From positions 64,001-128,000 of IMG/VR virus record IMGVR_UViG_3300027708_000026: a stretch of DNA of 64,000 nucleotides; one strand, given 5' to 3'. Shown here piece by piece: positions 15 through 24,000 of this stretch. Source of the stretch: a virus. A program made the position numbers and the translations under genes. A model generated the notes under the pieces. The model did not search any database. It was given only the letters and a program-made list of their open reading frames with translations, and was not told the DNA's origin. Each line of letters starts with the position of its first letter. Position 1 is the first letter of the stretch.

Positions 15-1187
15 ATGTCACAACTATTAAATGAAAGATGGTCAGAGACCAAAGAAGCTCTGCTTGAAGGCCTACAAGGTACCCGTCGTAGTTCTATGCA
101 GGTTTGCTTAGAAAATACACGTAGGTATTTGGCTGAAAGCGCAACAGCTGGTGCAACCAGCTCTGGAAACATTGCTACACTAAACCGTGTGATTCTTCCA
201 GTTATCCGTCGTGTTATGCCAACCGTTATCGCTAACGAAATCATCGGTGTTCAACCAATGACTGGCCCAGTAGCACAAATTCACACTCTACGTGTTCGCT
301 ATGCTGATTCTTCAACTGAAGTCACAGCTGGTGAAGAGGCACTAAGTCCATTCAAGATTGCTAGCGCATACTCTGGTAATGATGGTTCACCTGCTAAAGC
401 TGCTGTAACAAGCCAGCTAGAAGGTCAACCAGGCAAGCGTATGTCCATTCAAATCTTGAAGACACCAGTCGAAGCTAAGTCTCGTAAACTAAGCGCTCGC
501 TGGACGTTTGAAGCTGCTCAAGATGCACAAGCCCAACAAGGTATTGACATCGAAGCAGAAATCATGGCTGCACTAGCACAAGAAATCACAACTGAAATCG
601 ACCAAGAAATCCTAGGAAGCCTACGCTCACTAGCCAACGTCGAACAGACATATGACCAGTCTCTAGTATCTGGTACTGCTACATTCGTAGGTGACGAGCA
701 CGCTGCTCTAGCGATTCTAATCAATCGTACAGCTAACTTGATCGCTCAACGTACACGTCGCGGTGCAGCTAACTGGGCTGTTATCTCTAACCAAGCACTG
801 ACAATTCTACAATCTGCTACTACCAGCGCTTTTGCTCGTACAACAGAAGGTACATTTGAAGCTCCTACAAACACCAAGTTTGTTGGTACATTGAATGGCG
901 CTATGCGTGTTTATGTTGACGCTTATCTAAGTGATGCAAGCGATGCAAACCAAGTTCTAGTTGGATACAAAGGTTCTAGCGAAGCAGATGCTGCTGCGTT
1001 CTATTGCCCATACATTCCTCTAATGAGCTCTGGTGTTGTTCTAGATCCAGCAACCTTCGAGCCAGTCGTTGGCTTCTTGACACGCTACGGCTATGTTGAG
1101 TTGACCAATGCAGCTAGCTCACTAGGTAACGCTGCTGACTATCTAGGCCGTGTTGCTATCACTAGCGCAAACGTTTCCTTCCAATAA
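15..1187 (+). CDS. gp23: Major capsid protein (T4 gp23-like)
   Basis: Motifs IIGVQPMTGP, AKSRKLSARWTFEAAQD, EITTEIDQEIL, AAFYCPYIPL and TRYG; Shine-Dalgarno (SD) AAGGAG upstream; likely prohead-protease site LAE/S near the N-terminus. Confidence 0.97.
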   Translation: MSQLLNERWSETKEALLEGLQGTRRSSMQVCLENTRRYLAESATAGATSSGNIATLNRVILPVIRRVMPTVIANEIIGVQPMTGPVAQIHTLRVRYADSSTEVTAGEEALSPFKIASAYSGNDGSPAKAAVTSQLEGQPGKRMSIQILKTPVEAKSRKLSARWTFEAAQDAQAQQGIDIEAEIMAALAQEITTEIDQEILGSLRSLANVEQTYDQSLVSGTATFVGDEHAALAILINRTANLIAQRTRRGAANWAVISNQALTILQSATTSAFARTTEGTFEAPTNTKFVGTLNGAMRVYVDAYLSDASDANQVLVGYKGSSEADAAAFYCPYIPLMSSGVVLDPATFEPVVGFLTRYGYVELTNAASSLGNAADYLGRVAITSANVSFQ

Positions 1188-2897: not shown

Positions 2898-5800
2898 ATG
2901 GCTACTATCACAGTATCAGGAACAAGATCACAAACTCCCGGCGGTCCAAGTGCAGTATCAGCGCCTACTGGTAGCATCAACTTAAATTCCACGATTACTA
3001 ATGTTTCCGGGCAATTGAATGTTGGCAGCAATTCGACTATAGGCGGAAGTTCATCAGTTGGTGGAAATTTTTATGTCACCGGTAGCAGTTCCTTAACAAA
3101 TCAAGTTGTTATATCGAGTACACTTAGTTCAGTTAGTACTACCACAGGTGCATTGGTAGTTGGTGGTGGAGTTGGAATTGGACAGAATTTAAATGTTGGT
3201 GGTAATGCAGTAATAACAGGTACTGTAGTAGTTTACAATAATGTATCTATCACAGGAACTATCGCAGTTCTAGGAAGTACTACAACTGTCATTATCAACG
3301 CAAATGATAATAATGTAGGTAACCCATTAGGTGTTGAATACACCACTACAAATGTTTATGGAACTATCGATCAAAGATTAAAAGGTGCAGTATATGTTGG
3401 TGGTGGTGTTGGTATTGAAAAAGATTTGAATGTTGGCGGATACATCTATGGTCGAGTAGCCAAATCAGATCAAACTGCTCAAACACTAGTCACATCTACT
3501 AATGTAGACGAAGTATTTTATCCTACATTCGTTAACAAATTAGGTATTAGTACAGCAACATTTAGCTATACTTATATTGATAACATAAACACCGGCACCG
3601 GAGGTACTACTAGTACTGGTGGGTTAACATATAATCCTTATTCTGGATTATTGACAACATTTAATGCAAATATATCTGGCCCACAAAATAGTGTCAGTAC
3701 TGAAACCGGAGCACTTACCGTAGCCGGCGGTGTCGGTATTGCTAAAGATACTCACATTGGTGGCAAGGCCTATGTCGCTGAACTAATTACCAATTTAATA
3801 TCTAGCCAAACCGGTCCAATAGCTATCAAACCTGAAGGTGGTGAGACTGATATCTATGGTGAAATTAATGTTCGCGGCGGCAAAAAGCCTCTTGGAACTG
3901 CACCGGTTGTTACAAATACATTGTACGTAACTATGGACGGGGATGACACCAATGACGGTCGTGCCCAAGATCCAAGCCGGGCTTGTCGTACAATCGGCGG
4001 AGCAATGAAAAGCTCGTACTACCAACCTGGCACACAAATTAGAGTAAGCGCCGGTCATTATTTTGAAGATAATCCATTACCGATGAAACCATATACATCG
4101 GTAATGGGTAGTGATATTCGTACGACAGAGATTGAGCCAATTAATAAAACTCAAGACTTGTTTCATGTTAATTCTGGATGCTACCTAGCGTTCATGCAAT
4201 TCTGTCAAGGACGTAGCGGATTGCTTCCTGGTGATTATTATACATCAGATACTAATAGGGGAGCATATGCCACAGCATTCCCGCCCCAAACTGGTGACAA
4301 TAGAATTGATTTATTCCATAGCCCATACATTCAAAACTGTACAAATTTAAGCGGCCCGTGGTTAAAAGATGGTAGTTTGTTTCAACCCAATGGGACTGTT
4401 CAAATTCCTATCGTAGTGGGAACTGCTACTTGGGTTGCGAATACATCAAGCATGTTAGTCACATTGAATACTAGCCTAAGTACTAGTACAGTATTACAGG
4501 GAATGAGTGTTAATCAAGGACAACAAAACTTAGGATTTTTTAACGCACGTTCTTTATTGTTAGCAAATAAGCCATTCTTGCAATCACAAGTAGTCAGCTT
4601 TGTTGATCAAACTTTCAATAGTGGAAGTTTTGTTTACAACGCTGCCAGTTGCAGAAGAGATCTTGCGTTAATAGTTGATAGTGTTGCATTGGATTTAATT
4701 TATAATACTACCAGCGAAAGTATCTTTGCCGGTTTACAATATTGGAATCAAAATGGTTATACCGGTAGTATACTAAATCAATTAACAACTACGACCGCAG
4801 CAATATCACATGTAAGATCTTTAGCCTATAGTGTGGTCAATGCAATTGACGGTGCTTCGGCACTGATTGTGGATGCGGATTTTCAAGTTATATTAGATAT
4901 AATAAACAACGGAACTGCCGGTGTTTCTAACATCATTGTTACAAATGGTGAGAAAACTGCCAATACAACATTGTTAAATTGTTACAATGCATTGATTGCT
5001 GCAAAGCCTACGATTGCTAGTCAAACTGTAGCATGGATTACAGCAAACAATCCAACTTTTACATTTAATACTTCGACATGCTATCGAGATATTCAATACA
5101 TGATTGACAGTGTGGCATTTGATTTAAGCCACCCTAATAATATCAGCGGGGCACCAAGTAATAAACAAGCAGTTAAGTCAGGTGTATATTATTACAATTT
5201 TGATTCAACGTCTACGGCTGTGCCCAACGAAGTTCCACAAGTTGTGTCAGCTTACAATTATCTAAGATCTATAATACCAAATATTGTCACTGGTGTCGAA
5301 CTACCTAAAAAATACAGCTTATCAACACAAAGCACTACTGGATATACATCGGCAACAATTTACGAATCTGGATTGATACAAGACAAACTAGATCTAATCA
5401 CTAACATTATTAGAAATGGTCCAAGTGCAGTTTCTGATAAAATTCCAATGCCACTAACTCAGAGTGGGAACATTGTATTACTTAATGCCTATAGATTATT
5501 AGAGGCGAACATAACATTCTTACAAGATGAAATTATAGCATATATTGATAGTCAGTTTAATAATTTTGATTATAACAGGCAAATTTGTTACAGGGATGTT
5601 GGCATTTTAGTAGAGAATGTCTCTTACGATGCAACATTTGGCGGTAACGAAAAATCTATTGAAGCAGGCCTGGCATATTGGAACGGTGCTATCAGCAAAA
5701 TATCTGGACAAGAAACACAGACCATAAGTGCTATTGATTATCTAAATAGCCTATGTCAACGAGTCATCACTAATACTACATGTACTGTACTGTCTCCAGT

Positions 5801-8800
5801 TGTAGGTATCAAACCAGGTGTGCAGGTAATAAACACTGTGTTGATAGGTGGAGAAGTTTCTAGTACAAGTATTGGCAATCTGTTTAATATTATCACTAGA
5901 CTCATACAAACTGGTAGCGGAGATGAATTCATCAAACAAGGTAGCTCTGCAATTGATGCAGCATATCTAAGTGCTGAAGTACTAATGCAGGCCAACAGGG
6001 CATTTATACAAGAAGACACAATCAATTGGATCAATAACAATTACCAAACTTTTCCTTACAATGCTATCAAGTGCAAGAGGGATACTGGCGTAATTATTGA
6101 TTCTGTTGTCACAGATTTATTATTTCCCACACCTGAATACAGTCAAAGCACATTCGCAGGTTTACAATATTACATACAGAGCAATTTGGTCGGGGCAGTC
6201 CCAGATCAATATCATCAAACAGTACAAGCAGTTGAGTACCTAAAAGAATTAAGTGCCAAGGTTATACAAAATATCACACCAGCTGACGATTTAGTCAGCC
6301 GATATCAAACAGCTGAGCCTCAAATTACTAATTTAGAACCAGGAACCTATTCTGATGCTAAAAAAGTTATGGCAAATTATGACATCATACTTGAAATATT
6401 AAACGGTAATATCACTGGCTGGACTGATAAACTTATATTTGGGTTTACTGCTAGTAAATTCTTAAGTGTACAAAATGCTTATGCAGTTTTACAGGCCAAC
6501 GCTACATATTTGGCCAAAGAAGTGGTTGCTTACATTAATGCAACTAACCCAGGTTTTGCTGCTACATATGATAATGCAAAATGTGAAAGAGATGTTGGGT
6601 ATATGAATACCAGTGTTTGTTTCGACTTGCTATACGGCGGAAATAAACAAAGTATCCAGTCGGGATTAAACTACTATGGATATGTAGGAAATATATCTAA
6701 CATCGTTAACGAAACTACTGCTACAATCGCAGCGTTTAATCACCTATCTATCATAGCTTCAGACATCATACAAAATATTTTAATTACGCCACTACAAACA
6801 ACTGTACAGCAAGTAATAACAACAACTACATCAACCGTTGGCGTAGCCAATCTTTTTGCCCGAGCAATTAGTACAGTTACAGATATCATCAGTAATGGAA
6901 CAACAGTTGCAGCTACTAGACTAGTACCTGTTAGCTTAACGAGATCTACAACACCGGCGACATTGGTTGGGGCAGACAATATTTTAGCCAATAAAGACTT
7001 TTTAAAAGCAGAAGTAATCGCCTACATAAATCAAACTTTTGAAGGCCCATCGTCATTCTTCTATGATCAAGAAAAGTGTTATAGAGACACTGGATTAATT
7101 GTCGATGCAGTTAGTCAAGATATACTATTAGGCGGGAATCAAAAGTCTGTTGAGGCAGGACTGTCCTATTGGTCCGCAGGTTATAACTATGTAACTGGAC
7201 AGGAAACTACTACAACCGCAGCAATTAACCATGCACGGGACATTGCATTACAAATTATTGCCAATCAGACAGTTACTCCTCAGCTACAAACTGAAGCAAC
7301 GCAAATCATTAACACTTTCTATGACTATGGTCAGGATTACATGCCACAACAGGCCATAAGACGTAATTTTGGCATCATTACAAATATAATTGAAAAAGGT
7401 CCGTTATATGCTCCGTCTATATATCCAGGCAGCGCACTGGCTAATACGACTGGATTAAATGCTCTAGATGTTCAAATTGCTCCGTTGGTTACAAGTGTAA
7501 AATTAGTAAACACTGCAACAAACACCTACCTAATTGGATTAGATATTGTCACTGTTGGATTTGCCAATAATGCTACTTTATATTTTGGTGATAGTTCTAT
7601 ATACCCAATGCAAGATTATCAAGTTGAAGAACTTTCTTTAGAATATACCGGAAATGCTAACACATGGGATATGCGTAAAGTTGATTCTATTGGCGGTATG
7701 GGAGGCAGTTTAGTTGATGGTGCTGTTATATCTGAACGTAGTCCGATCAATTCTTTTGTTTACGATGCATATACTCAGCTGACCCAGGGCGGGCGCGGAG
7801 TACGTATTACTAATAATGGTTATGCACAGTTAGTTTCTGTATTCACAATTTTCTCAAGTGTTGGTGTACAAGTTGATAATGGCGGCATTGCTAGTATTGT
7901 TAACAGTAATGCCAATTTTGGTGATCTGTGCCTAGTTGCTAAAGGTTATGGTACCAGAAAGTTCAGCGGTACCGTTTACAATCCTAAATTTAAAGCATAT
8001 CCAGATAGCCCGGGAGTTAACGGATATAATCAATATTATCCAAATGGATTCTGGCCAAACAATGCCCGAGTAGAAATTTTTGTTCCTGATTTAGATAATA
8101 GACCACACATCAGTTTGGTAATGGAAGTTGTACCAGATGAAGGTCATATCAATGAGCAAGGGTTCCCCGGGTTCTTAACAGCCCAGCCCAATCTTGCTAC
8201 ATTAACAACTGGATCTATTACGATTACTGGTATCGATACAGCTGGAATTTCTATAGGAAACTTTGTATATATTAGAGATCAATTTGCATCTACATTTGAT
8301 AAGTTTCAGTATGTACATGATCAAATTGGAAATTATTTAGATATAAATGGTAATATCACTACAGACCCCGCCCAATATATCGTCAATGCTAACTATGGAA
8401 TACCATATATTGCCACTGGGACATATGTTACGAATGTTAGTTATGCATCTGTCACATTAAACTATGCATTGCCAACTGGCGGCGGATTCCCTGGTAATGA
8501 TAATTATTTCACATTCTATTTCTGCGGTAACGCCTATTATACTGTATTAAGCAGCACAGTTGCTAACAATCCAAAAACTCCTAATACTAATATTATCGGA
8601 AGTGCCAACACATCAACTGATCAAGTGGCTGCACATATCGATTCTTTACAATATTTGAATAGTTTAATAGATAAAGTTATTGGAAATGTTACAGTTGCAG
8701 TACAACCACTAAACTCTACTAGCATACAAACTTTCTTACCTTTAGTGGTAGGTGGTGCTAACGCAGCATCGTTTATTGATTTACGATTTGGAGAGATGAC

Positions 8801-9485
8801 TTCTATAATAGGTGCTACTCCTAGCACCTATGCAACCATAGTGCCACCTAAACTGATCAAGAAAACTGGAACAGTTCCTTTGGGATCTGGCAATGCGATA
8901 GAACTAATCAATGCAAACAAAACTTTCCTAGCTGATCAAGTGACAGCATATGTTATGAATGTTTATAGAAATCCAGGAGTGTTTGATTATGATGAGGCTA
9001 AATGCCGACGAGACGTATTCTTAATACTACAAGAACTAATATATGATCTAGAGTCTGGTGGAAATTACCACAGTGTATTCTCAGGTTTAAGTTACTGGTC
9101 TAGGGACGGTACACATCATATCGTACAGATGGGCGAGAACGTAACAAGGAACGATTTATTCCCTGATGGTGCTACTGTTAATTTCTATCAACGTAGTTAC
9201 ATCAGCGCAAGCGGATATGTTTTTGAATATGTGGGAGCAGGCACCAATTATGGAGCATTGCCGCAATTTGGAGTCGCTGATCCGGTACAAGGTAAAGAAG
9301 TTGTACAGTTAGACAACGGAGCGGTGTTCTTTACATCAACAGATCAAAACGGTGACTTCCGTATTGGTCCTGGATTAGTTATCAGTCAAGCAACAGGTGT
9401 TCTAAGCGGTAGAACATTTACCAAGTCGCTGTTTGCCAATATGACACCATTTATATTGGCAATTGAAGGCGGCGGCGGATTTTAA
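2898..9485 (+). CDS. Giant virion protein: fibre-repeat N-terminus, pectin-lyase-like beta-helix, seven helical CxRD repeats
   Basis: TGALxVxGGVGI repeats; beta-helix motifs LYVTMDGDDTNDG, SPYIQNCT and DAYTQLTQGGRGVRITNNGYAQLVS; C-terminal VFFTSTDQNGDFRIG motif; TAAATA 2875-2880 plus SD. Confidence 0.75.
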   Translation: MATITVSGTRSQTPGGPSAVSAPTGSINLNSTITNVSGQLNVGSNSTIGGSSSVGGNFYVTGSSSLTNQVVISSTLSSVSTTTGALVVGGGVGIGQNLNVGGNAVITGTVVVYNNVSITGTIAVLGSTTTVIINANDNNVGNPLGVEYTTTNVYGTIDQRLKGAVYVGGGVGIEKDLNVGGYIYGRVAKSDQTAQTLVTSTNVDEVFYPTFVNKLGISTATFSYTYIDNINTGTGGTTSTGGLTYNPYSGLLTTFNANISGPQNSVSTETGALTVAGGVGIAKDTHIGGKAYVAELITNLISSQTGPIAIKPEGGETDIYGEINVRGGKKPLGTAPVVTNTLYVTMDGDDTNDGRAQDPSRACRTIGGAMKSSYYQPGTQIRVSAGHYFEDNPLPMKPYTSVMGSDIRTTEIEPINKTQDLFHVNSGCYLAFMQFCQGRSGLLPGDYYTSDTNRGAYATAFPPQTGDNRIDLFHSPYIQNCTNLSGPWLKDGSLFQPNGTVQIPIVVGTATWVANTSSMLVTLNTSLSTSTVLQGMSVNQGQQNLGFFNARSLLLANKPFLQSQVVSFVDQTFNSGSFVYNAASCRRDLALIVDSVALDLIYNTTSESIFAGLQYWNQNGYTGSILNQLTTTTAAISHVRSLAYSVVNAIDGASALIVDADFQVILDIINNGTAGVSNIIVTNGEKTANTTLLNCYNALIAAKPTIASQTVAWITANNPTFTFNTSTCYRDIQYMIDSVAFDLSHPNNISGAPSNKQAVKSGVYYYNFDSTSTAVPNEVPQVVSAYNYLRSIIPNIVTGVELPKKYSLSTQSTTGYTSATIYESGLIQDKLDLITNIIRNGPSAVSDKIPMPLTQSGNIVLLNAYRLLEANITFLQDEIIAYIDSQFNNFDYNRQICYRDVGILVENVSYDATFGGNEKSIEAGLAYWNGAISKISGQETQTISAIDYLNSLCQRVITNTTCTVLSPVVGIKPGVQVINTVLIGGEVSSTSIGNLFNIITRLIQTGSGDEFIKQGSSAIDAAYLSAEVLMQANRAFIQEDTINWINNNYQTFPYNAIKCKRDTGVIIDSVVTDLLFPTPEYSQSTFAGLQYYIQSNLVGAVPDQYHQTVQAVEYLKELSAKVIQNITPADDLVSRYQTAEPQITNLEPGTYSDAKKVMANYDIILEILNGNITGWTDKLIFGFTASKFLSVQNAYAVLQANATYLAKEVVAYINATNPGFAATYDNAKCERDVGYMNTSVCFDLLYGGNKQSIQSGLNYYGYVGNISNIVNETTATIAAFNHLSIIASDIIQNILITPLQTTVQQVITTTTSTVGVANLFARAISTVTDIISNGTTVAATRLVPVSLTRSTTPATLVGADNILANKDFLKAEVIAYINQTFEGPSSFFYDQEKCYRDTGLIVDAVSQDILLGGNQKSVEAGLSYWSAGYNYVTGQETTTTAAINHARDIALQIIANQTVTPQLQTEATQIINTFYDYGQDYMPQQAIRRNFGIITNIIEKGPLYAPSIYPGSALANTTGLNALDVQIAPLVTSVKLVNTATNTYLIGLDIVTVGFANNATLYFGDSSIYPMQDYQVEELSLEYTGNANTWDMRKVDSIGGMGGSLVDGAVISERSPINSFVYDAYTQLTQGGRGVRITNNGYAQLVSVFTIFSSVGVQVDNGGIASIVNSNANFGDLCLVAKGYGTRKFSGTVYNPKFKAYPDSPGVNGYNQYYPNGFWPNNARVEIFVPDLDNRPHISLVMEVVPDEGHINEQGFPGFLTAQPNLATLTTGSITITGIDTAGISIGNFVYIRDQFASTFDKFQYVHDQIGNYLDINGNITTDPAQYIVNANYGIPYIATGTYVTNVSYASVTLNYALPTGGGFPGNDNYFTFYFCGNAYYTVLSSTVANNPKTPNTNIIGSANTSTDQVAAHIDSLQYLNSLIDKVIGNVTVAVQPLNSTSIQTFLPLVVGGANAASFIDLRFGEMTSIIGATPSTYATIVPPKLIKKTGTVPLGSGNAIELINANKTFLADQVTAYVMNVYRNPGVFDYDEAKCRRDVFLILQELIYDLESGGNYHSVFSGLSYWSRDGTHHIVQMGENVTRNDLFPDGATVNFYQRSYISASGYVFEYVGAGTNYGALPQFGVADPVQGKEVVQLDNGAVFFTSTDQNGDFRIGPGLVISQATGVLSGRTFTKSLFANMTPFILAIEGGGGF
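4650..9100 (+). repeat. Seven helical protein repeats with consensus (Y/F)xxxxCxRDxxxxxxxVxxDxxxGGNxxSxxxGLxYW
   Basis: Cys codons at 4650, 5079, 5586, 6072, 6582, 7077 and 9003. Confidence 0.9.
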
Positions 9486-9497
9486 AAAGGATAAATC

Positions 9498-9878
9498 ATG
9501 GCGTTAATTCCATTAAATCAGTTTAGGACAATGACAGCTGTCTTAACTACAAGTACCTCGACAACAATTTATACATCACCTGTTGGAGTCACTAGTATTG
9601 TTCTCATGGCACAAGTTTCAAATAGGGGAACACAAACAAATGCTATAAGTTTTATACATAGTAGAAACATTCCTATACAACAAAATGCGCAGGGTAAGAA
9701 TGGGCAACCTATTGGCGACAGCTATCTAGTAGAAGAATATGGGTTACCGCCCCATGATGCAGTTAATTTATTGAGCGGTAAATTAGTTATAGAAACATTG
9801 GACAGTGTCAAAGCATATGCTTCTAAGGCAGGCGAATGTACACTTGTGCTAAGTATACTTGAAAGCTCTAATCAATAA
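9498..9878 (+). CDS. Small putative structural protein
   Basis: 126 aa, IYTSPVGVTSIVLMAQVSN beta-sandwich-like pattern, SD AAGGA, within the fibre cluster. Confidence 0.55.
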   Translation: MALIPLNQFRTMTAVLTTSTSTTIYTSPVGVTSIVLMAQVSNRGTQTNAISFIHSRNIPIQQNAQGKNGQPIGDSYLVEEYGLPPHDAVNLLSGKLVIETLDSVKAYASKAGECTLVLSILESSNQ

Positions 9879-9896: not shown

Positions 9897-12023
9897 ATGC
9901 CAGCATTACTAAGCGGATCCTCATTAATCGCCGGGGCTTCAAACAGCTATATTACTCTTGCGACTGCGCAACCGCAATTACCCGCTACGCCATCTACTAA
10001 TACTGGTTTTACTGTAATAACGGACATAGTTTACCCATCACAATTAGTCACTAGATATGCTTCTAGCTTGGGAAATATTCAATTTACTACAGGTACGATG
10101 CAGGCAAACTTGCCTAATTTAAATATCAATATTGTTGGTACGGGAACAGGTACAGTTATTATATCGGGATCAGTAGCCAATACTAGTTCTGACACAGGTG
10201 TACTAGTAGTAAAAGGCGGAGTCGGTATTTCTGAAGGAATACGTACAGGAAAAGATATTGTAGTCAATGGATTGACTATGGGGCAGGGATATAGTAATCA
10301 AATTGGTGGGGTTAACAATATCGTTATCACCGGGACTGCTAGTCCACAACTAAATGCATTTCCTGTTGGGCAGGAAAGTATAGTAATTGGATACGATGCT
10401 CTTAAAGGTATCGATACTTCTTATAAAGTTATTGCTATTGGTAGGTATGCAGCAAGTACTGGTACTCAATTAGAAAATGTGATAGCAATTGGCGATAGTG
10501 CTTTAAAAAATATCGGAACTACTCAAACAGAATTTGCTGGATTTATATCGGCAGTTACTGCGGCAAATACATTAACACTAACAGTATTGAATCACACGCT
10601 GTCTACAGGCACAGAAGTATTAATCAAAGATGTAGTTGGCATGACAGAGTTAAATGGTCAGACTTATTTTGTTGGTGTAATGTCTACATCATCTATAAGA
10701 TTATATACTGATATTAATTTACAAACTGGTGTTGATGCCAGCACCTATAATGGCTATGTTAGTGGCGGCAAAATATATAAAACATTATTATGGAATGGCA
10801 ATTTTGCTATTGGAAATAATGCCGGTAAAAATTTAATCAACGGCGAACAAAACTTTTTCTTAGGTTATAATCCTGCCCCTAATTTTACCACAGGTAGTTA
10901 TAACTTCTTCATGGGCCATGATATCGCCCAAAATATGATAACCGGTAATGCTAATATTTCCATTGGCGGCGACAACATGGTCGATGCCAAAGATAATCAG
11001 GTTAATATTGGATCGGTATTTTACTACAACGGCTCTGGTTATTTAGAATTAAATGCAGATACTGGATTAGGCTTGGGTACTGAATCAACATCAACAGTTA
11101 GTGGCGCATTTAATGTAGATGGCGGTGCGGGCATAAGCGGTAACCTATATGTTGGCGGAGAAATTCATGTAGTCAGTGCTAGAAATGCAACTACCACTAC
11201 TGATGGGGCACTAGTGGTAACTGGGGGTGCTGGCATCGGCGGCGACTTATATGTTGGCGGCACATTACATGCAACTGCTTTATCGTCATTAGTTTCCGGA
11301 TCTAGCCAACGTGCTGATGAAATTTTAGTAACTCCTACATCGTCAACTAATTATTATCTAGCATTGACACCTAATATATCCGGATATAATTCAATTTATT
11401 CACCTAGCGATATTGAGTACGACGGTTTAAACGATGTACTAATAGTGGGATCTAGGATTGATGTTACAAATACAACCCCGTCAGCAAATACTTATTCAGG
11501 ATCACTGACCGTATATGGTGGTGTTGGTATTGGCGGATCACTAAATGTAGAAAATGGTATTACGACACAAAATGGTGATATTGGTATTGGCATACAAACC
11601 TTAGCTGGTCATGAATATTTTGCAATTCATGTTAATAAATTTACCGGGGCTTTAGAATTCCATCCTAATAGAGTTACTGTAACTACTTCGACGACCGCAG
11701 TGTTTGTAATCGATGACGACGGCGGCCCAACAGTATCTGTTAATCCTTTTAAGGTTACAAATACAACAGCATCTACTAGTACCACTACTGGTGCGCTGCA
11801 AGTATCAGGTGGTGTAGGTATAACTGGCAGTGTATACAGCCGAGATGGAAATCCGGAACAAAATTATCTGCTGTATACACCTAAAGTTACTATTACTAAT
11901 ACTGGGTTGCCACCAACAAATCCTAAGCCTGGTGATTTCTGGATAGACACGCAAATACTAGCCGAGCTTCAATTTATTCAGGACGGTACTAGTACATTCT
12001 GGATACAAATTACATCACTATAA
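9897..12023 (+). CDS. Tail fibre/appendage protein
   Basis: TGALxVxGGVGI repeats, autotransporter-head-like (N/V)xAIGxxA repeats, a DVVGMTELNG domain and a C-terminal PPTNPKPGDFW module. Confidence 0.7.
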   Translation: MPALLSGSSLIAGASNSYITLATAQPQLPATPSTNTGFTVITDIVYPSQLVTRYASSLGNIQFTTGTMQANLPNLNINIVGTGTGTVIISGSVANTSSDTGVLVVKGGVGISEGIRTGKDIVVNGLTMGQGYSNQIGGVNNIVITGTASPQLNAFPVGQESIVIGYDALKGIDTSYKVIAIGRYAASTGTQLENVIAIGDSALKNIGTTQTEFAGFISAVTAANTLTLTVLNHTLSTGTEVLIKDVVGMTELNGQTYFVGVMSTSSIRLYTDINLQTGVDASTYNGYVSGGKIYKTLLWNGNFAIGNNAGKNLINGEQNFFLGYNPAPNFTTGSYNFFMGHDIAQNMITGNANISIGGDNMVDAKDNQVNIGSVFYYNGSGYLELNADTGLGLGTESTSTVSGAFNVDGGAGISGNLYVGGEIHVVSARNATTTTDGALVVTGGAGIGGDLYVGGTLHATALSSLVSGSSQRADEILVTPTSSTNYYLALTPNISGYNSIYSPSDIEYDGLNDVLIVGSRIDVTNTTPSANTYSGSLTVYGGVGIGGSLNVENGITTQNGDIGIGIQTLAGHEYFAIHVNKFTGALEFHPNRVTVTTSTTAVFVIDDDGGPTVSVNPFKVTNTTASTSTTTGALQVSGGVGITGSVYSRDGNPEQNYLLYTPKVTITNTGLPPTNPKPGDFWIDTQILAELQFIQDGTSTFWIQITSL

Positions 12024-12035
12024 AGAGTTAAAAAT

Positions 12036-12782
12036 ATGGCGTTATTAAATTTCCCCGCAAATCCATATGTAGGACAACAGTACACGCTTGGCGGAAAAAC
12101 TTATCAATGGACGGGGTATGCCTGGACCATAGTCAGTCAAGGGTCTGGTAATTTTGATGGCATAACTATAGGAACAGGTACAGGGGCAGTGTCAATTACT
12201 ACAGGTACTATTACAATTGGCGGTATTCCTATATTGACAACTGCATCTTTAGCAACCATTACATTACAGGCAGTTACTGATAACGGTTCTACAACTACAA
12301 ATAAAGTATATCTAACTAACACTACAAATTCTACAAGCACTACCACTGGAGCATTACAGGTAAAGGGTGGTGTAGGTATTGGTGGAGATATAAATGTAGG
12401 TGGTACTGTATATTCTGAACACTTACAAATTGCTGATTCAGTATTTGACAGTACTGCGACACCGGTTAATACAGCAGTGGCGACCGTGATTGATTCTTAT
12501 CCAGTTACACAATTTAGAACGTCTAAATACTTGGTGCAAATAGACGACCCATCCACTAATAGTTATCAAGCCAGTGAATTATTAATGTTGGTTGCAAATA
12601 CTGCAAGTGTTTACACTACTTGGGTGACTGAGTATGCTACGGTAAAAAATAATACATTGCTTGGTCAATTTCAAAGCCAAGTGGTATCACTTATTGGAAT
12701 TCCGACTGCGCAGTTATTATTCCAAGCAAATGGTGCAACTAGTAAAACAGTAAAAGTATTACGTATTGGCATGACACCTTAA
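12036..12782 (+). CDS. Short fibre/adaptor protein
   Basis: N-terminal FPANPYVGQQY...YQWTGYAW module, one TGAL repeat and a C-terminal IDS..FRTSKYLVQI domain. Confidence 0.6.
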   Translation: MALLNFPANPYVGQQYTLGGKTYQWTGYAWTIVSQGSGNFDGITIGTGTGAVSITTGTITIGGIPILTTASLATITLQAVTDNGSTTTNKVYLTNTTNSTSTTTGALQVKGGVGIGGDINVGGTVYSEHLQIADSVFDSTATPVNTAVATVIDSYPVTQFRTSKYLVQIDDPSTNSYQASELLMLVANTASVYTTWVTEYATVKNNTLLGQFQSQVVSLIGIPTAQLLFQANGATSKTVKVLRIGMTP

Positions 12783-12797
12783 CGGGAAGAAACCAAC

Positions 12798-15700
12798 GTG
12801 GCACTAACTCCAGTAAATCAGGATTTTAATGTAAACAACGGACTCGTTGTTTTAGGCACAAGTGCGGTTACAAGTTCAACTGATCAGACTAATGCACTAC
12901 AGGTTAATAGTGGCGCTGCTGTTGCCCAAAATTTAATTGTTGGCACTGACGGAAAAATTTACGGAAATTTTGAAGTAGTTGGTACTACCACACTAGGCAA
13001 TACAGTTCTTAGTACATCTACTGTCAGCGGTGATTTAACTGTGACAGGCGAGATAATTGCAACACGATTAACAATACAATACACTACAGTTACTACCGCA
13101 TTAGTCACTACTGATGATATAATATCAACTTATAACACTACATCATCTACTGGTACGACTACCGGCGCATTGGTCATTGCCGGCGGTGTGGGCATTGGCA
13201 AAGATGTATTTGTTGGTGGTAATGTTACTGCTCCTAGATTTTTAGGAACTGCTACTACAGCAAAAAATTTAGAAGGCGGCAGCACCAATAGTATACCATA
13301 TCAATCTACTGCCGGATCTACGGTATTTTTACCTGTTGGTTTAGACGGTACTATACTTGGAGTAGTCGGGCAACAACTGACATGGACTAGCTCTGCAGGT
13401 GCGACAGTCGGCAATGCAAACACTGCAACAAACTTAGCAGGCGGAACCAAAGGAGCAATACCTTATCAATCCGATGTTGGCCAAACAGCTTTTGATGCTT
13501 CTGGATTGAAATATGTCAGCTCGTTGACACAACTAGTAACCAATAATATTTTAGTAACCAGTTCAGCATCTGGAACCACTATTGGTGGCGGGGCAATATC
13601 AGTCACAGGCGGCGCATATTTTGGAAAAGATGTTTACATCGCAGAGACTGGCATGGGTGCATTTACTGTAGCAGGTTATGCGGCTATCGGTAAAAGATTA
13701 ACTATATTAGATTATACAGATGCATCAAGCACTGGCACAGGGGCTTTGATCGTATCTAATGGCGGTGCATACATATCTCAGAATGTATATATTGGTAGTA
13801 CGGTAACTGCTGCCAACGCACGTATTACTTCTTTGGGCAATAATCGGTTAATTTATTCAGATACTTCCGGAAATTTACAAAATACAGTAGTTACCTATAG
13901 CACACAAACGCTACAATTATCTGGAACTATAACCAATGCTCTATATGCAGGTACTGCCACTTACGCGATTACCAGTGCATTTGCGACTACTAGCGGATAC
14001 ACATTATCTTTTAATACTGGCACACTAGTAACAAATGCTCTATATGCAGATACTGCCACTTACTCGATTACCAGTGCATTTGCGACTACTAGCGGATACA
14101 CATTATCTTTTAATACTGGCACACTAGTAACAAATGCATTATATTCAGTCACTGCTACTTATGCAACTATAGCATTGGGGTTTAATACTAATACATTGGT
14201 ATCATCAGCGGTCACAGCATCTTATGCAACAAATGTACTCGGCGGCTCATATGGAAGTGTATTATATCAAACAGCAACTAATCAGACTGCTGCATTACCT
14301 ATAGGCGGCGAAGGTACAATATTAGCGATTGTCAATGGTATATTGGGTTGGGGAAATCCTTCAGGATTTACAGTAAGTACCGCGACTAATTTTAATGGTG
14401 GTCAGGCTGGATCGATACCATTTCAAACGGGCTCTGGACAAACATCATTTGACGATCTAAACTTAAACTTCCATCTTCCTTATACACCAGATGCGATTTT
14501 ATCCGCAAATAAATTAGCAGTAACTAGTACTACAAATAGTATTTCATCAATAACTGGTGCATTAGTAGTATCTGGCGGTGTCGGAGTAAAAGGTGATATC
14601 TATGTAGGCGGTGCTATATATTCTAACGGTCAAGCAGTATTAACTGGCGGGACTGGTACTGGTTTCGTTAGCAACATAGTTGCAGGTACTGGAATAAGTG
14701 TATCCTCATCAACTGGTGCTATCACCATTTCCAATACAGGTGTACTGACGTTAACAGCTGGTACTGACACATCATTGAGTACTTCGACTGGTAATATTAC
14801 AGTATGGAATAATAGCACATTACAGAGTGTAACTTCTAGAGGATCAAGTACCAATAGAATTATTACAATATCTAATAATACCACTGCATCATCTACACAG
14901 TCTGCGGCATTGGTAGTAACTGGCGGAGTTGGTATTGGGCAAAATGTTTATATCGGTGGCAAGATAAATGTTGGTGGAAACATATTGCCAACAACTAGCA
15001 CAGTTAGTTTAGGAACATTAGAAAATCCGTTCGCAGATTTATATTTAGGATCTAATTCTTTAAACATTGATACTGTTAGATTTTCTGGAATTGGATCAAC
15101 ACTAACTATAACAGTAATACCTACTCCACCTACCTATGCTACTATCCCGGCTACATTAAATATTGGGAATATTTTAATTACGGGTGCGACTAATTCAACA
15201 TCAACAAATACTGGATCACTACAGGTTGCTGGTGGCGCCGGTATTGCTAAAGATATTCAGGTTGGCGGCAGTGCGATAATTGCGAATACATTATCTATAT
15301 TCAGCACACTATCTAGCACAACAACTATATTCCAAAATGCGTTATACGTAGCAGGTGGTGTTGGTGTTGGTAAAAACTTACTCGTTACTGGTGAAGCGGT
15401 ATTCCAAAATAATGTAACATTTAACGGCACAACGACCTATGTGTTGAGTACAAATAGTGTTTACACTGACAATATTATTGAGTTACATTATCCTAACACT
15501 CCGGGAAATACATGGACAGTCAATGATAATAATGATATTGGATTACGATTCCATTATTATGATACACAAGATCGAAATGCATTCCTAGGTCGAGATAATG
15601 CCACTGGCTATTTAGAATGGCTAGTTAACGCCGGCCCTGATAATACAGCAAACGTCACAGGTACTAATGGGATATTTAGATTAGGCAGTATTATTTTAAC

Positions 15701-18700
15701 AAATACCACTGCATCAACAAATACAGCTACTGGGGCGCTAACAGTCGTAGGCGGAGTTGGAATAGGCGGAGATTTACAAGTTGGTGGCACGATTTATAGA
15801 AATGGAATATCTGTAGGTTATGGATATACTGGTAGCGTCGGTCCGCAGGGACCTATAGGATATGCAGGAAGTTCCGGTGCAGGTGGTGGCACTGGTTATA
15901 CCGGATCAATCGGCCCACAAGGACCGCAGGGATATTCGGGATCGGTTGGACCACAGGGACCGCAGGGGGTAACAGGCCCGCAAGGACCTCAGGGATATTC
16001 GGGATCGATTGGACCGCAAGGCGCAACTGGATATGCGGGTTCAACTGGCACACAAGGAATTACTGGTTATACTGGTTCAATTGGATCTACTGGTACACAA
16101 GGACCTATAGGATATGCAGGAAGTTCTGGTGCAGGTGGCGGCACTGGTTATACTGGTTCAATTGGATCTACTGGTACACAAGGACCTATTGGATATGCTG
16201 GATCTATTGGCCCACAAGGGCCGCAGGGATATTCTGGATCAGTTGGATCTACTGGTACACAAGGACCTATTGGATATGCTGGATCTATTGGTCCACAGGG
16301 GATACGCGGGTATGATGGAAGCCGCGGGCCGCAAGGGCCACAGGGCGTAACCGGACCACAGGGCCCGGTTGGATACACTGGTTCAATTGGATCCACTGGT
16401 ACCATAGGATATTCTGGATCAGTTGGATCCACTGGTACTATAGGCTATTCGGGTTCAGTTGGCGCACAGGGACCTATCGGATACACTGGATCAGTTGGAT
16501 CTACTGGTACTACAGGTTATGCTGGCTCAGTCGGATCCACTGGTACTATAGGCTATTCGGGTTCAGTTGGATCTACTGGTACTACAGGGTATGCTGGTTC
16601 AATTGGATCCACTGGTACACAAGGACCTATTGGATACGCTGGATCTATTGGCCCACAAGGGCCGCAGGGATATTCTGGATCAGTTGGATCTACTGGTACA
16701 CAGGGACCTATTGGATATGCTGGATCTATTGGATATGCTGGGTCAGTCGGATCCACTGGTACTATAGGCTATTCGGGTTCAGTTGGATCTACTGGTACTA
16801 CGGGGTATGCTGGTTCAGTTGGCTTAACTGGATCGTTTACAGGTACAACTACATCAACAGTTTTTATCAATAACACGACTACATCAGTCAGTACAAATAC
16901 CGGCGCTCTGACCGTAGCAGGTGGTGTTGGCATAGGCGGTGCTGTTTATATTGGGACATCTTCCTATATTGCTGGCGCACAGATCATTACCACTGCCACT
17001 ATTGGAAATTACGCTAGCGGCGGCAGTACTAGTTCAAGTGGTATATCAATATACGATGAAGGTATTCAAATAGCATCGACAGTGACTGCTCTTAACTTTG
17101 TTGGAGACGGCGTTATAGCTACAACTTCAACTGCTGGAGCTATAAAGTTTGTTGGAAATACTCAATGGTTAAGTATTCCATCTGTCGCAGGATTAAATTT
17201 AGGCGATCCTAGTTACCCCGGCGCCCTAGACGGGCCAAACTTTACAATTGAATTTTGGATGTACGCCACTAGTTCTGCTACCGATGTGTACATAATGGAT
17301 AAAGATGGGATTGCAGGCCTATCATATGCTGAATACGGATTTAAGTTATCGACCTTAAGAGTAGTAACATTTTATGTTGGGCATGGTGATAATGCCGGCA
17401 CCCAGTATGGTGGGGAGCAAAATTTCACAGTAGGCACAGTCGCATTGAATACCTGGTATCATGTGGCTGCAACACAATCGGCCACAAATCAAATTAAAAC
17501 ATTCCTTAATGGCACATTAACTGGCACTACTACAAGAAATCAAAGGATGGTTGATGGCGGTAAAGCGTTATTAATAGGCTGGTGTCAAGATCAAGCAACT
17601 AATACTCGATTTACTGGATATCTAACTAACATTCGAATTGTCAAAGGCACAGCACTTTATACGAATACCTTTCCATTGCCCGCCGCCGCACTGACCACAG
17701 TCACAAGCACTGCACTTTTATTAAATGCCGCCAGTCCTGCATCTTTTCTCGCAGATGGTAGCACAAATAACGCCAGCATAACCAACAACGGAACAGTCTC
17801 GTTTGTCAGCAGCTCGCCACTCTTTGCAGGTGTAACAGTTACTATACCAAGTTTTTCAGTATCGAGTGTTTCGTCAAATACACCAAGATATCTAACATTC
17901 GTCTCCACTACCACTGGATCTGCAAGTGCAGAAACAACAGCTACCGGATTATTATATGTTGCAAATAGAGGTATAGCTATTGGCACAAGCACAATAACAG
18001 CATTAGCTGATCCAATGGGATTGGCCGGAGGTTATATTAGGGGCAAAGTTTTAGATCTCTACGGTGGTTTATATATTAGACAAGTGGGCTCTAGCATTAT
18101 TTCGTCAAATTATCTGGGTCAAGGTGTTTACGACAATACCACTTACATTAATGCAGGCGGCACTAACAATAATTTTATTTGGCAGATAAATGGCGGCCAA
18201 AAGATGTACCTATCAAATGCTGGATATTTTGGCATTGGGACATCTCCAATATCCGATTTACATTTACAAGGCTCACAATTTAGACACAATGATGTCAGCG
18301 GGTGGAACACTTATACATTTACTGTATTACCAGGAGTGGTACAACTAGCATCGACTGCCAGTATTTCAATTCAGTCAGCTAATGTTTCCATCACTTCAAC
18401 TGCATCAAGCACCGGTACTACAACAGGAGCATTACAAGTTGTGGGCGGCGTTGGCATTGGTGGAGATTTATATTTTGGTGGAATAATTTCTGGAGGTGGA
18501 GTTAGAACAAGTACTACCACAACTACACCAAATCCTGCAAGCGTAGGAGACGTTTGGTATTATCAAGGCACTGATGTAGTTTATAGATACCAATATGATG
18601 GAACAACCAGTACATGGGTAGATGTAACTGGACCTAATCTCATTGGATTGTATCAATATCAAGGCAATGCTGCATCAACTCCTGCCTATCTATCTGCTGC

Positions 18701-19070
18701 TTCAGGTAATAATTTTATAACACCATCAGTAGCATGGGCAGCAGCAGCACCTGTAGCATTAACTGATGCAGCGACAATACCTGTGGATTTAAGTGCGGGA
18801 ATGAATTTTACCTGCCTGTTAACCAGCGGAGTTGGCACAACAAGAAAGTTAGATAATTTTGTAAATCCTAAACCAGGACAAACTGGATGGATAATGTTTA
18901 CACAGGGTGCAACTGGAAACAATAATGTCACATTTGGTAATAACTGGCATTGGCCTCTAGGAACCACTGGAACATTTTCTACATCAACTGCCAACGCCGT
19001 AGATATTTTATTTTATACAGTTCTAACACCAACATACTATTTAGGTAATATGGCCAATAGGGTGGTATAA
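12798..19070 (+). CDS. Long fibre protein with collagen-like and LamG/concanavalin-like domains
   Basis: GTG start; many TGAL repeats; 113 Gly-X-Y triplets; LamG-like motifs [16 protein letters not shown] and [11 protein letters not shown]. Confidence 0.8.
13935..14137 (+). repeat. 99-bp in-frame tandem duplication (33 aa)
   Basis: Copies start at 13935 and 14034 and differ at only two positions; a degenerate third copy follows. Confidence 0.92.
15822..16838 (+). repeat. Collagen-like (Gly-X-Y)113 coding repeat
   Basis: Uninterrupted triplets such as GYT/GYA/GYS, GSI/GSV, GPQ, GST and GTQ, with many internal near-exact DNA repeats. Confidence 0.95.
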
Positions 19071-21082: not shown

Positions 21083-24000
21083 ATGTCATTCCCAGTAAAC
21101 CCAACCAGTGGACAGATCGCTGTAGTTAATAATATTGTATATTCTTATAACTCTTCAGGTACCGGTTATTGGACTAGAGTAGCAGCAAATACCAGTACAC
21201 TTGCGATCACTGTTGCATCTTTAAACATTGCAAATACATCTAGCAGCACGTCAACTACAACCGGAGCATTGATAGTTTCTGGCGGCGTGGGCATTGGTGG
21301 CGCCGTTTATATCGGAACATCTTCTTATATTGCTGGCGCACAGATCATTACCACTGCTACCATTGGATTGTATGCTGCGGCATCCTCAGCCAGTACTGGT
21401 ACAACTAGCACATTCACTATTTTAAGTACAGCAAATAGTTTTAGTACCACTACAGGCGCATTGCAGGTGCGTGGCGGTGCAGGCATTGGCGGTAACTTAT
21501 ATGTCGGCGGAGCACTAAATGTTGTTGGAGTCAGCACATTAACTGGCAATTTATACACGTCAATCATTTATGATATTGCTGATACAAATTACCAAACATA
21601 TCTATGGCCCACTGATACCAGTAAAATAGTCGGACTTTCAGCCAGGGGATCTGAGGTGGGCACCGGAAATGACACGCAGATTGGTTCTATATCAGTAACT
21701 CGAGGAGCAATTACTGCCGCGAATACTGCAACATTCTATGGGTTGTATAATAGGTCACTCAGTTATGCCGCAGGTATTGGTATAGATTTCAACGGCAATT
21801 TATGGTTTGGTAAAGTATCTGGTGGCGGTTCTGCATCCACTAGACAAAGCAATTTATTTTATAGTGATAATTCCGGCAACGTATATGCAGGCAATTCTTT
21901 TAGATCAAATGTATTTTATGCCAACAACACTGCATACTTTTTAGATTTTGCCACCACTGCTACTAAACATACTATACTATCAAATGCAGTCAGCACTGAT
22001 TTGATTGGCTACGATCCTGCTATAGGAGTTTACATTGGCGGCACTGACAATAGGTACCTAACCAATGGTACGACATCGTCTGGCGGTCCACTATGGGTGA
22101 TGACCGGCACCACTTATAATCTAATACATTCAGGAAATATTTCACAATATGCAGGAGCTTCAAGTACTACAACATTTACTAACCCTGTAATAATTAGATT
22201 AAACACTGTTGATACCATTGGCTCTACAGCTTCTACTCATTTAACATTAATTAACCCCAATACCGGCGCTGCCAGTTCTGGAATTTATTGGAGATTTGCC
22301 AATCAGTCTGAGATACGTGCTAGCCTGCGTGTGAATGACTCTGGCGATATTATACATAATTCTTTGAGCGGGAATTATAGATTCCAGCAAGATTCTGGTT
22401 CAAGTGCAACTAATTTTTTAAATTCTACAACATCATTTATGAGCGTCGATGGCGCAGGAAATGTATCGTTCCCTAAAAATATCACTGCTGCAAAATTAAT
22501 CGACTACGATGATAATACATATTATCTAGATCCTAACTCTACTTCAACTATCAATCAGTTAACAATGAAAGGATTGTTTACAGCCACTGTTGTAGGCACA
22601 GCTAATACCTGGACTGATGTAGTTCTTGCCACTTCAAATCAAGGCGGAACATATATCACTGCCAATAGACCAACTGTAGCCACTGGGGATGTGGGATATA
22701 AATGGTCAACTGGAAACTCTGCAATTTGGACCAATTACATACCAGCAAACGATGCGTATACATTGACATGGGGATTGCTCGGCGTCAAACAGTTCACTAT
22801 GAATAGTGCTGGCAACATGTCAACACAGGTTCAAGGAGCAGCAATAGGGTCTCCTCAATTTTATGATGCCAACAATTCCAGTTACTATATAAAACCTTCG
22901 GGATATTCATACTTAAACTCTTTAAACTTAGGCGGCTTGATCACCGGAATTAGCACAGGTACGGGCATACGTGTATTCAACAACGGTTCAAATAGTTTCA
23001 CCAGCACGGTATTCTGGGGAGTCCCAACGTTAAATTATTATTGGAACTGGCAAACCGACGCCGGCGGCAATGCAGCGTTATGGGGTTATCCATTTAACAA
23101 TACTTCTACAAGAGTATTAACAGTAACTCCATCAGGCAATTGGGGATTCAATCAATCGACATTACCTGGTGATGTTGACATGATCGGCGGTATATCAGTC
23201 ACTGGTACTGGAACTACGCAAGTCAGTGTTATGAAAGGTTCGACGTCCGGATTCTCATTGAGAGTTTCAGATACAGTCTTTGGTGATTTTTCACTTTATG
23301 ATAAGGCCCAGGGTAGTTGGAAATTGGCAATCAATGCGGCCAGGGGATCGGTTGGTGTTAATGCCACTGCCAATGCCGCATATGGATTGAATGTCGGCGG
23401 TGATATTAACATCGGCGGCAACATTTATCAAAACGGATCTGCCCTTACCAACAATGTCAACACTGGCACATTTTCTGCAAATCAATATGCATGGTATGGA
23501 ACTACTGGTGCAGGTGTTAGTCTTACACAAAATAATACATTTGAGACCAGTGCTATTTTTGGTGCGGATCATGTATTGGGTAGCGGATCTTTATATGATT
23601 TATTAGCATGGAATCCACCGAACACCACTGAATATTATAATTTTAATGGATTTACATTTGCATGGATCTCTGATGCAACAGATGTTAAACCTCTGTTCAA
23701 CGGACAAAACTCTCAGATATCAGTCAGTAATAACTATACGCTTACCGGCGCAACTAAACAAGGTGTTAGATTTACTTGGAGTACCTTTAGTAATAGATTC
23801 TGGGATGCATTATTGATCACTGGAAATACCGCAGGTGTAGCCTTAGATGTAACTATAGAAAGTTCTAATGACGGCGGGACAACCATCGTTACTCATGTTA
23901 GTCGAGCATCTATCGGATCTACAGCAGTAAATGGTATGCACTACTTGAGAAATCAAGCAACCAATGCTAGTACTGGACAATGGTTTAGATTGACCATTAG

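Follow-up and report, generated by a model that had tools for sequence, protein, structure and literature searches.

We analyzed a 64,000-nucleotide stretch of viral DNA (positions 64,001 to 128,000 of IMG/VR record IMGVR_UViG_3300027708_000026; hereafter the window), in which a gene for a 2195-aa protein contains seven divergent repeats of about 165 aa that are very probably homologues of phycobiliproteins (PBPs) and other bilin-binding globins, with a conserved cysteine that aligns with Cys84, the bilin-attachment residue of phycocyanin. Judging from its sequence matches, the gene belongs to a Rak2-like jumbo phage and probably specifies a structural protein of the tail-fibre type, in which a DUF1565/beta-helix-like core would have been expanded by seven homologues of the PBP globin core. 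It is quite possible, though short of probable, that these domains carry a covalently bound bilin in the virions.

A tandem array of phycobiliprotein-like repeats

The 2195-aa protein matches the tail-fibre PHROG families phrog_5342 (E 8e-72), phrog_17885 and phrog_4527, with E-values ranging from 8e-72 to 2e-48. From its composition the motif Cys-x-Arg-Asp (C-x-R-D) would be expected 0.019 times, whereas the protein contains seven copies, at aa 585, 728, 897, 1059, 1229, 1394 and 2036, with successive spacings of 143, 169, 162, 170, 165 and 642 aa; none of 20,000 shuffled sequences contained more than two. These motifs, the spacings of the first six and the flanking residues had been reported in a first-pass annotation of the window, and all were reproduced from the open reading frame. 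The annotation had also taken the motifs to lie within repeats, which is what we find: a profile built from the seven units of the protein (A1) recovers six full units at aa 542-1518, with domain E-values of 1e-54 to 1e-64, and a seventh unit that is split. The six full units share 22-36% identity in pairs (about 29% overall), and beyond them and the split seventh the A1 profile matches nothing in the 145-kb record to which the window belongs. The gene and its parts are laid out as follows, in window positions, with the first nucleotide of each motif Cys codon and the domain E-value of each full repeat.

2898-9485, plus strand: whole gene, a single open reading frame for a predicted 2195-aa tail-fibre-type virion protein
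2898-3908, plus strand: N-terminal Gly/Ser/Thr-rich region with three GGVGI motifs found by regular expression; Pfam assigned it no family
3909-4517, plus strand: first part of the fibre core, aa 338-540, DUF1565/right-handed beta-helix-like (putative fold), from identity to an S-SRM01 protein and ESM-Atlas features
4521-4970, plus strand: PBP-like repeat 1, aa 542-691, SCRRD, Cys585 at nt 4650, E 2.7e-54
4956-5450, plus strand: PBP-like repeat 2, aa 687-851, TCYRD, Cys728 at nt 5079, E 2.9e-61
5463-5963, plus strand: PBP-like repeat 3, aa 856-1022, ICYRD, Cys897 at nt 5586, E 5.4e-61
5949-6440, plus strand: PBP-like repeat 4, aa 1018-1181, KCKRD, Cys1059 at nt 6072, E 8.3e-63
6453-6953, plus strand: PBP-like repeat 5, aa 1186-1352, KCERD, Cys1229 at nt 6582, E 2e-64
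6948-7451, plus strand: PBP-like repeat 6, aa 1351-1518, KCYRD, Cys1394 at nt 7077, E 8.7e-64; the unit that was modelled
7455-8597, plus strand: second core part, aa 1520-1900, with 49% identity between its aa 1619-1695 and aa 202-278 of the S-SRM01 protein
8607-9200, plus strand: unit 7, circularly permuted according to the A1 profile, with a G/H-like half at aa 1904-1985 followed by an A-B-E-F half at aa 1992-2101, KCRRD, Cys2036 at nt 9003
9168-9482, plus strand: conserved C-terminal fibre domain, aa 2091-2195, 52% identical to the S-SRM01 C-terminus and matching phrog_17885 and phrog_3442 at their C-terminal ends

For comparison with known proteins, 46 diverse repeats were drawn from 33 related IMG/VR contigs (alignment A2), and 15 CpcA and 15 CpcB sequences, whose loci were located in cyanobacterial genomes via a degenerate DNA pattern, were aligned as a phycocyanin counterpart (A4). 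When the A2 profile was searched against all PDB sequences, phycocyanin alpha chains made up eight of the ten best matches, the best of which (6jpr_A, E 0.0015) aligns repeat positions 4-65 with phycocyanin positions 33-104 and places the repeat Cys on Cys84. Similarly, comparison of A2 with A4 in hhalign (84.5% probability, E 6.9e-6) aligned repeat positions 43-112 with phycocyanin positions 77-144, spanning helices E to G, and again put the repeat Cys on Cys84 of CpcA and CpcB. In Pfam, the sole match of the 2195-aa protein is to PF00502 (Phycobilisome; E 0.011), with aa 1391-1459 on profile positions 73-141. Scanned singly, 12 of the 46 repeats match PF00502 at E ≤0.1 (best E 0.0017), and no more than two match any other family. 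Moreover, precomputed PF00502 matches are present, silently, in the database entries of many full-length homologues; literature searches turned up no description of PBP-like domains in structural proteins of phages, those of cyanophages included. A 71%-identical homologue belongs to a cluster whose longest recorded contig measures 378,694 bp.

Structure prediction, which the first-pass annotation had proposed as a check, points to the same family. An AlphaFold2 (AF2) model of repeat 6, computed from alignment A2 without templates, reached a pLDDT of 86.3 and a pTM of 0.84 and comprises six helices (positions 5-16, 18-33, 43-63, 67-74, 88-106 and 134-152). Its best Foldseek matches among PDB structures are without exception PBPs (TM 0.63-0.67 over about 150 columns), and in an exhaustive VIA-align search the first eight rows are PBPs or the bilin domain of ApcE, with Z of 12-14.6; the best of these, 5aqd_M, aligns 145 residues within chain residues 27-184 at a root-mean-square deviation of 2.8 Å. 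Next in VIA-align come globin-coupled sensor domains that bind heme, at Z 11.4 and 11.2, followed by a photocobilin protein at Z 10.8. Over both methods the PBP rows align 115-145 residues at 2.2-3.0 Å, and VIA-align itself cautions that chance alone often gives helical models a Z of about 13-14. With PBPs as its top matches, the model indicates that the repeat corresponds to the PBP globin core (helices A-H) without the N-terminal X-Y hairpin. Two ESM-Atlas searches were uninformative: searching by the features of repeat 6 yielded nothing usable, and searching by its modelled structure brought up unrelated families only, all at TM <0.5.

Collectively, these separate sequence and fold methods agree on the same family in the same register, and homology of the repeats to PBPs and bilin globins is therefore very probable, though no single statistic is overwhelming. 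The proposal that these are PBP-type globin domains with their Cys on the bilin-attachment residue, first made from the motif, the downstream GG and the repeat length, is upheld by the PDB profile search, by hhalign and by the AF2 model with its Foldseek and VIA-align matches.

Conserved residues, relatives and distribution

To assess residue conservation, 121 homologous proteins were used, which supplied 1263 full repeats. Of these repeats, 98.6% have the motif Cys, 99% the Arg and 100% the Asp, and the complete C.RD pattern occurs in 1243 of the 1263. Asp60 and Tyr76 (repeat numbering) are conserved in all repeats, and Asn18, Ala96 and Gly152 in more than 90%, while no His is found among the conserved columns. 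In 78% of the repeats there is no Cys besides that of the motif, and no other column has more than 8% Cys. An intradomain disulfide, which the first-pass annotation had named as an outcome that would speak against bilin attachment, is therefore ruled out, the Cys being unpaired within the domain in those 78%.

The CpcA and CpcB alignment A4 has 16 invariant positions; when the repeats are merged with it, only C84, R86 and D87 among these are kept, with G102 and G114 partly so. D13 has no counterpart, Y97 is variable, E117 is a Tyr in the phage repeats, and R93 aligns to repeat Asp55, a position occupied by one of the two acidic residues Asp and Glu in 91% of the repeats. The repeat begins at about PBP position 30, the X-Y hairpin being missing, and Asn47 and an aromatic residue at position 74 are common to phage repeats and PBPs. 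Asp13 and Arg93 of PBPs are conserved alpha-beta contacts. With the X-Y hairpin and Asp13 gone and Arg93 replaced, assembly of the PBP alpha-beta type looks lost. Selection thus appears to have retained the bilin site in the phage repeats and to have lost the assembly features, and the equivalent of Cys84-x-Arg86-Asp87 is, on the evidence of the alignments, under very strong selection.

PBPs (PF00502) share with the phage repeats the globin-type helices A-H, a K-C-x-R-D-x-G helix E in register, a unit of about 165 aa, a Gly-Gly turn following helix E, the G-L in helix F, and the Asn47 and position-74 aromatic noted above. The nearest PBP is the C-phycocyanin alpha chain (CpcA) by sequence, and phycoerythrin, allophycocyanin and the PB domain of ApcE by fold. 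Unlike PBPs, the phage repeats lack the X-Y hairpin with Asp13, have Asp or Glu for Arg93, which makes alpha-beta pairing unlikely, and have Asp60 and Tyr76 as extra invariants. PBP subunits are free-standing proteins of about 160-175 aa that form (alpha-beta)3 discs, whereas here seven domains are fused in a 2195-aa fibre protein, and tens are in its relatives. The settings also differ: PBPs are bilin-bearing antennae of the thylakoid, whereas the phage domains, known here from sequence and a model, belong to a predicted virion protein.

A second group for comparison is formed by the BBAGs (bilin biosynthesis-associated globins), PBP paralogues of non-photosynthetic bacteria that stand outside the light-harvesting antenna and were recognised in 2023 (Rockwell, Martin, Lagarias; PMC10151467). 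Those that bear CXRD, BBAG-1 and BBAG-3, need no lyase to attach a bilin (PMC10151467), and they resemble the phage repeats in having CXRD on a globin fold, a likeness that we draw from the published description. BBAGs are single-domain proteins encoded beside heme oxygenase and pre-PcyA reductases, whereas the phage domains stand in tandem in a structural protein, and such enzymes were not found in the DNA searched.

In addition to these cellular proteins, the same repeat family with C-x-R-D, fibre core and C-terminal domain occurs in giant fibre and baseplate proteins of T4-like cyanophages, including S-PM2 p091 (T4-GC 830), a P-HM1 protein annotated as gp7, and members of PHROGs 5342, 4527 and 701. 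S-PM2 p091 (L034:3046-13062; 3338 aa, a tail fibre by annotation) contains C-x-R-D in five repeats, at aa 728, 1020, 1151, 1282 and 1413, the repeat period being 131 aa there as against 162-170 aa in the Rak2-like jumbo phage. In units 3-5 of p091 only profile positions 41-153 are matched, and these units seem to be without the A and B helices; the last unit reads C-A-R-D, as does phycocyanin alpha. S-PM2 also encodes CpeT (E 1.8e-40). CpeT is thus present in repeat-bearing S-PM2 and has no match in S-SRM01, which has a repeat-free core, an anecdotal observation from two genomes.

To place the repeats among phages more widely, the A2 profile was compared with 1.84 billion proteins, yielding 1575 cluster representatives at E ≤1e-3, the best 150 of which are all long multi-repeat proteins of up to 6382 aa with up to about 42 matched stretches. 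A repeats-only query matched 160 of 50,697 cultured-phage records, all from cyanophages (139 named for Synechococcus, 14 Cyanophage, 6 Prochlorococcus and one marine single-cell virus), and none from T4-like or Rak2-like phages of heterotrophs in the same set. The gene itself had no megablast match among cultured phages. A phage-type repeat profile had no match at E ≤1e-8 in 401 cyanobacterial genomes, giving no host link, and in one picocyanobacterial metagenome-assembled genome it had none at E ≤1; neither search brought up a prophage or a co-binned copy.

The record that contains the window is 144,907 bp long and estimated to be 41% complete; the full genome would accordingly measure about 350 kb, the size of a jumbo phage. 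The major capsid gene lies upstream of the repeat gene (15-1187, plus strand), and its product is about 70% identical to those of the Rak2-like jumbo phages 121Q, PBECO4, Vibrio 2.275.O and Sinorhizobium Phosso, which places the repeat gene in a Rak2-like jumbo phage and not in a T4-like cyanophage. Capsid lineage and fibre domain thus indicate different host worlds, that of the Rak2-like phages of heterotrophs as against that of the cyanophages among which the repeats occur in culture.

Possible functions of the conserved site

Should the domains carry pigment, a linear tetrapyrrole from the infected cell would be bound to the single Cys of each domain during assembly. Phycocyanobilin, phycoerythrobilin and biliverdin are candidate ligands, and attachment might be autocatalytic, as in the BBAG globins, or proceed via host lyases. 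The product would be a fibre in the form of a string of chromophore-bearing beads, without the (alpha-beta) discs of PBPs. The role of such a pigment is the most uncertain part of this account; it might sense light and so gate adsorption, afford photoprotection or stabilise the domain.

Bilin attachment would be favoured by the likeness of the repeats to PBPs in sequence and fold, by the selection focused on C-x-R-D, by the lone Cys of most repeats, by the precedent of BBAG-1 and BBAG-3, and by the restriction of the repeats, among cultured phages, to cyanophages, whose hosts are rich in bilins. Several observations weigh against it. Family searches of the 145-kb record revealed no heme oxygenase, FDBR, CpeT, Photo_RC/psbA, NblA or hli, and a PF00502 family search of the record was empty. 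The first-pass annotation had proposed a search for heme oxygenase, bilin reductase and lyase genes; in this record, at 41% completeness, it came back empty for heme oxygenase, FDBR and CpeT. Similarly, FDBR, heme oxygenase and Photo_RC/psbA were not found in the 33 related viral contigs (about 1.7 Mb, each 3-58% complete), and all searched records of this lineage are fragments, which cannot show the absence of a gene. The literature yielded no report of pigmented virions. In Pfam, the PF00502 score of the 2195-aa protein, 16.2 bits, lies under the gathering threshold of 22.2. Asp60 and Tyr76 are invariant in the phage repeats yet are not PBP features, and for this reason the pocket may differ from that of PBPs, or the conserved set may be a purely structural network. 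Finally, the closest capsids are those of Rak2-like phages that infect heterotrophs, and the host may therefore not be a cyanobacterium; if it were not, biliverdin made by it would be the only obvious bilin.

Much of this evidence would also suit a scaffold without chromophore, in which the PBP-derived globin serves as a rigid helical spacer and C-x-R-D, Asp60 and Tyr76 form a network of hydrogen bonds and salt bridges that the fold needs, an account that we hold to be possible but somewhat doubtful. Genes for bilin synthesis or lyases were not found in the 145-kb record, nor heme oxygenase or FDBR in the 33 fragmentary contigs, and the capsid is closest to those of phages of heterotrophs; moreover, the number of copies differs greatly between proteins, reaching about 42 matched stretches, a pattern common among spacer domains, and the phage-specific invariants Asp60 and Tyr76 adjoin the triad. 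A lone unpaired Cys in 98.6% of 1263 divergent repeats is, however, hard to attribute to packing alone, the surviving PBP-invariant side chains are just the three residues of the bilin site, and the occurrence in cultured phages is restricted to cyanophages. We consider it quite unlikely that the Cys-Arg-Asp site supports some other chemistry, such as the binding of heme or another cyclic tetrapyrrole, of a metal or of a host surface molecule, or a Cys link between chains or domains of the fibre. Such a role would agree with the heme-binding globin-coupled sensors and the photocobilin protein that follow the PBPs as second-best folds, with residues near the triad that are unlike those of PBPs (R93 replaced by Asp, E117 by Tyr, and the new Asp60), and with the searches of the 145-kb record, which found no bilin genes nearby, but the top matches in both sequence and fold are bilin-binding PBPs and not heme globins, the C-x-R-D triad is the bilin signature of PBPs and BBAGs (PMC10151467), and the repeat columns hold no conserved His of the kind that a heme iron ligand would need.

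Homology itself would fail if an unrelated helical bundle had converged on the K-C-x-R-D-x-G helix and this local likeness had drawn the prediction to the PBP fold. Each statistic is modest on its own (the Pfam E of 0.011 is sub-threshold, the best PDB E is 0.0015 and the Foldseek E is about 1e-2), and the VIA-align Z is close to values that helical models often reach by chance. Convergence is nonetheless highly improbable: independent lines give the same family and register, the matches reach far past the motif (phycocyanin positions 33-104 in the profile search and 77-144 in hhalign), N47 and the position-74 aromatic are shared, and PBPs occupy the top eight VIA-align rows together with all top Foldseek rows.

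With bilin attachment, a PBP fold whose bilin triad is under near-absolute selection, chained repeatedly in phage fibres, would amount to a pigment-carrier domain placed on the virus particle. The purpose of hemO and of pcyA or pcyX in phages, some of which are thought to infect heterotrophs, is "still enigmatic" (PMC11480375), and if the domains are chromophorylated, the reason for phage heme oxygenase, bilin reductase and CpeT genes becomes testable, as does light-dependent adsorption of cyanomyoviruses without host photosynthesis. S-PM2 unites light-dependent adsorption, cpeT and the five p091 repeats in one cultured phage. That bilin-bearing fibres act as a phage photoreceptor or light-gated adsorption device, and are the missing substrate of phage ho1, pebS/pcyA/pcyX and cpeT, is unlikely on present evidence; it would account for the light-dependent adsorption of cyanomyoviruses (S-PM2, P-HM1/2), which does not rely on photosynthesis by the host. 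Even apo domains would clearly illustrate how a fold from host photosynthesis can be reused for building a structure.

Fibre core, permuted unit and neighbouring genes

A repeat-free protein of S-SRM01 (QPX48294, L035:2830-4689; 619 aa) is collinear with the 2195-aa protein, its aa 58-182 corresponding to aa 338-484 (41% identity), aa 202-278 to aa 1619-1695 (49%) and aa 518-618 to aa 2091-2191 (52%). From this collinearity it follows that the six-repeat array lies inside an insertion of about 1135 aa within a conserved fibre core, in line with the initial description of an array between two halves of a domain; the seventh unit is, on the same alignment, in a second expanded region of the core. 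The label of beta-helix given to this domain in the first-pass annotation agrees with ESM-Atlas features, in which aa 330-545 lie nearest to DUF1565 clusters (0.93) and to right-handed beta-helix clusters; Pfam gave no match for the beta-helix core of the 2195-aa protein. An AF2 model of aa 1500-2195 (696 aa, from an 11-row alignment) had a pLDDT of 37.6, with the second core part below 50.

The helices of unit 7, with pLDDT of 54-92, are the sole confident portion of this otherwise poor model. In unit 7, profile positions 83-162 are found at aa 1904-1985 (E 3e-5), before positions 2-120 at aa 1992-2101 (E 7.8e-35). The suggestion that the array might be permuted consequently holds for this unit, which is circularly permuted, and not for the six full units.

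Ahead of the core, the N-terminal 335 aa contain three copies of GGVGI-x(2,3)-(D/N)(L/T)(N/H)(V/I)GG, at aa 90, 169 and 277 (window positions 3165-3203, 3402-3440 and 3726-3764).

Further fibre-type giants are encoded downstream, all of the following genes being on the plus strand. The first giant (12798-19070; 2090 aa) matches many tail-fibre PHROGs, including a collagen-like minor tail family, and the second (21083-26959; 1958 aa) has a terminal domain that matches families of the long-tail-fibre distal subunit; the PBP-like repeat was found in neither when the A1 profile was run over the 145-kb record. Between the repeat gene and the first giant lie genes for a 126-aa protein of phrog_1276, a family of unknown function (9498-9878), a 708-aa protein with a match to a tail-spike family (9897-12023) and a 248-aa protein weakly like baseplate-wedge or tail-fibre connector proteins (12036-12782). 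These three proteins may be attachment partners of the fibres.

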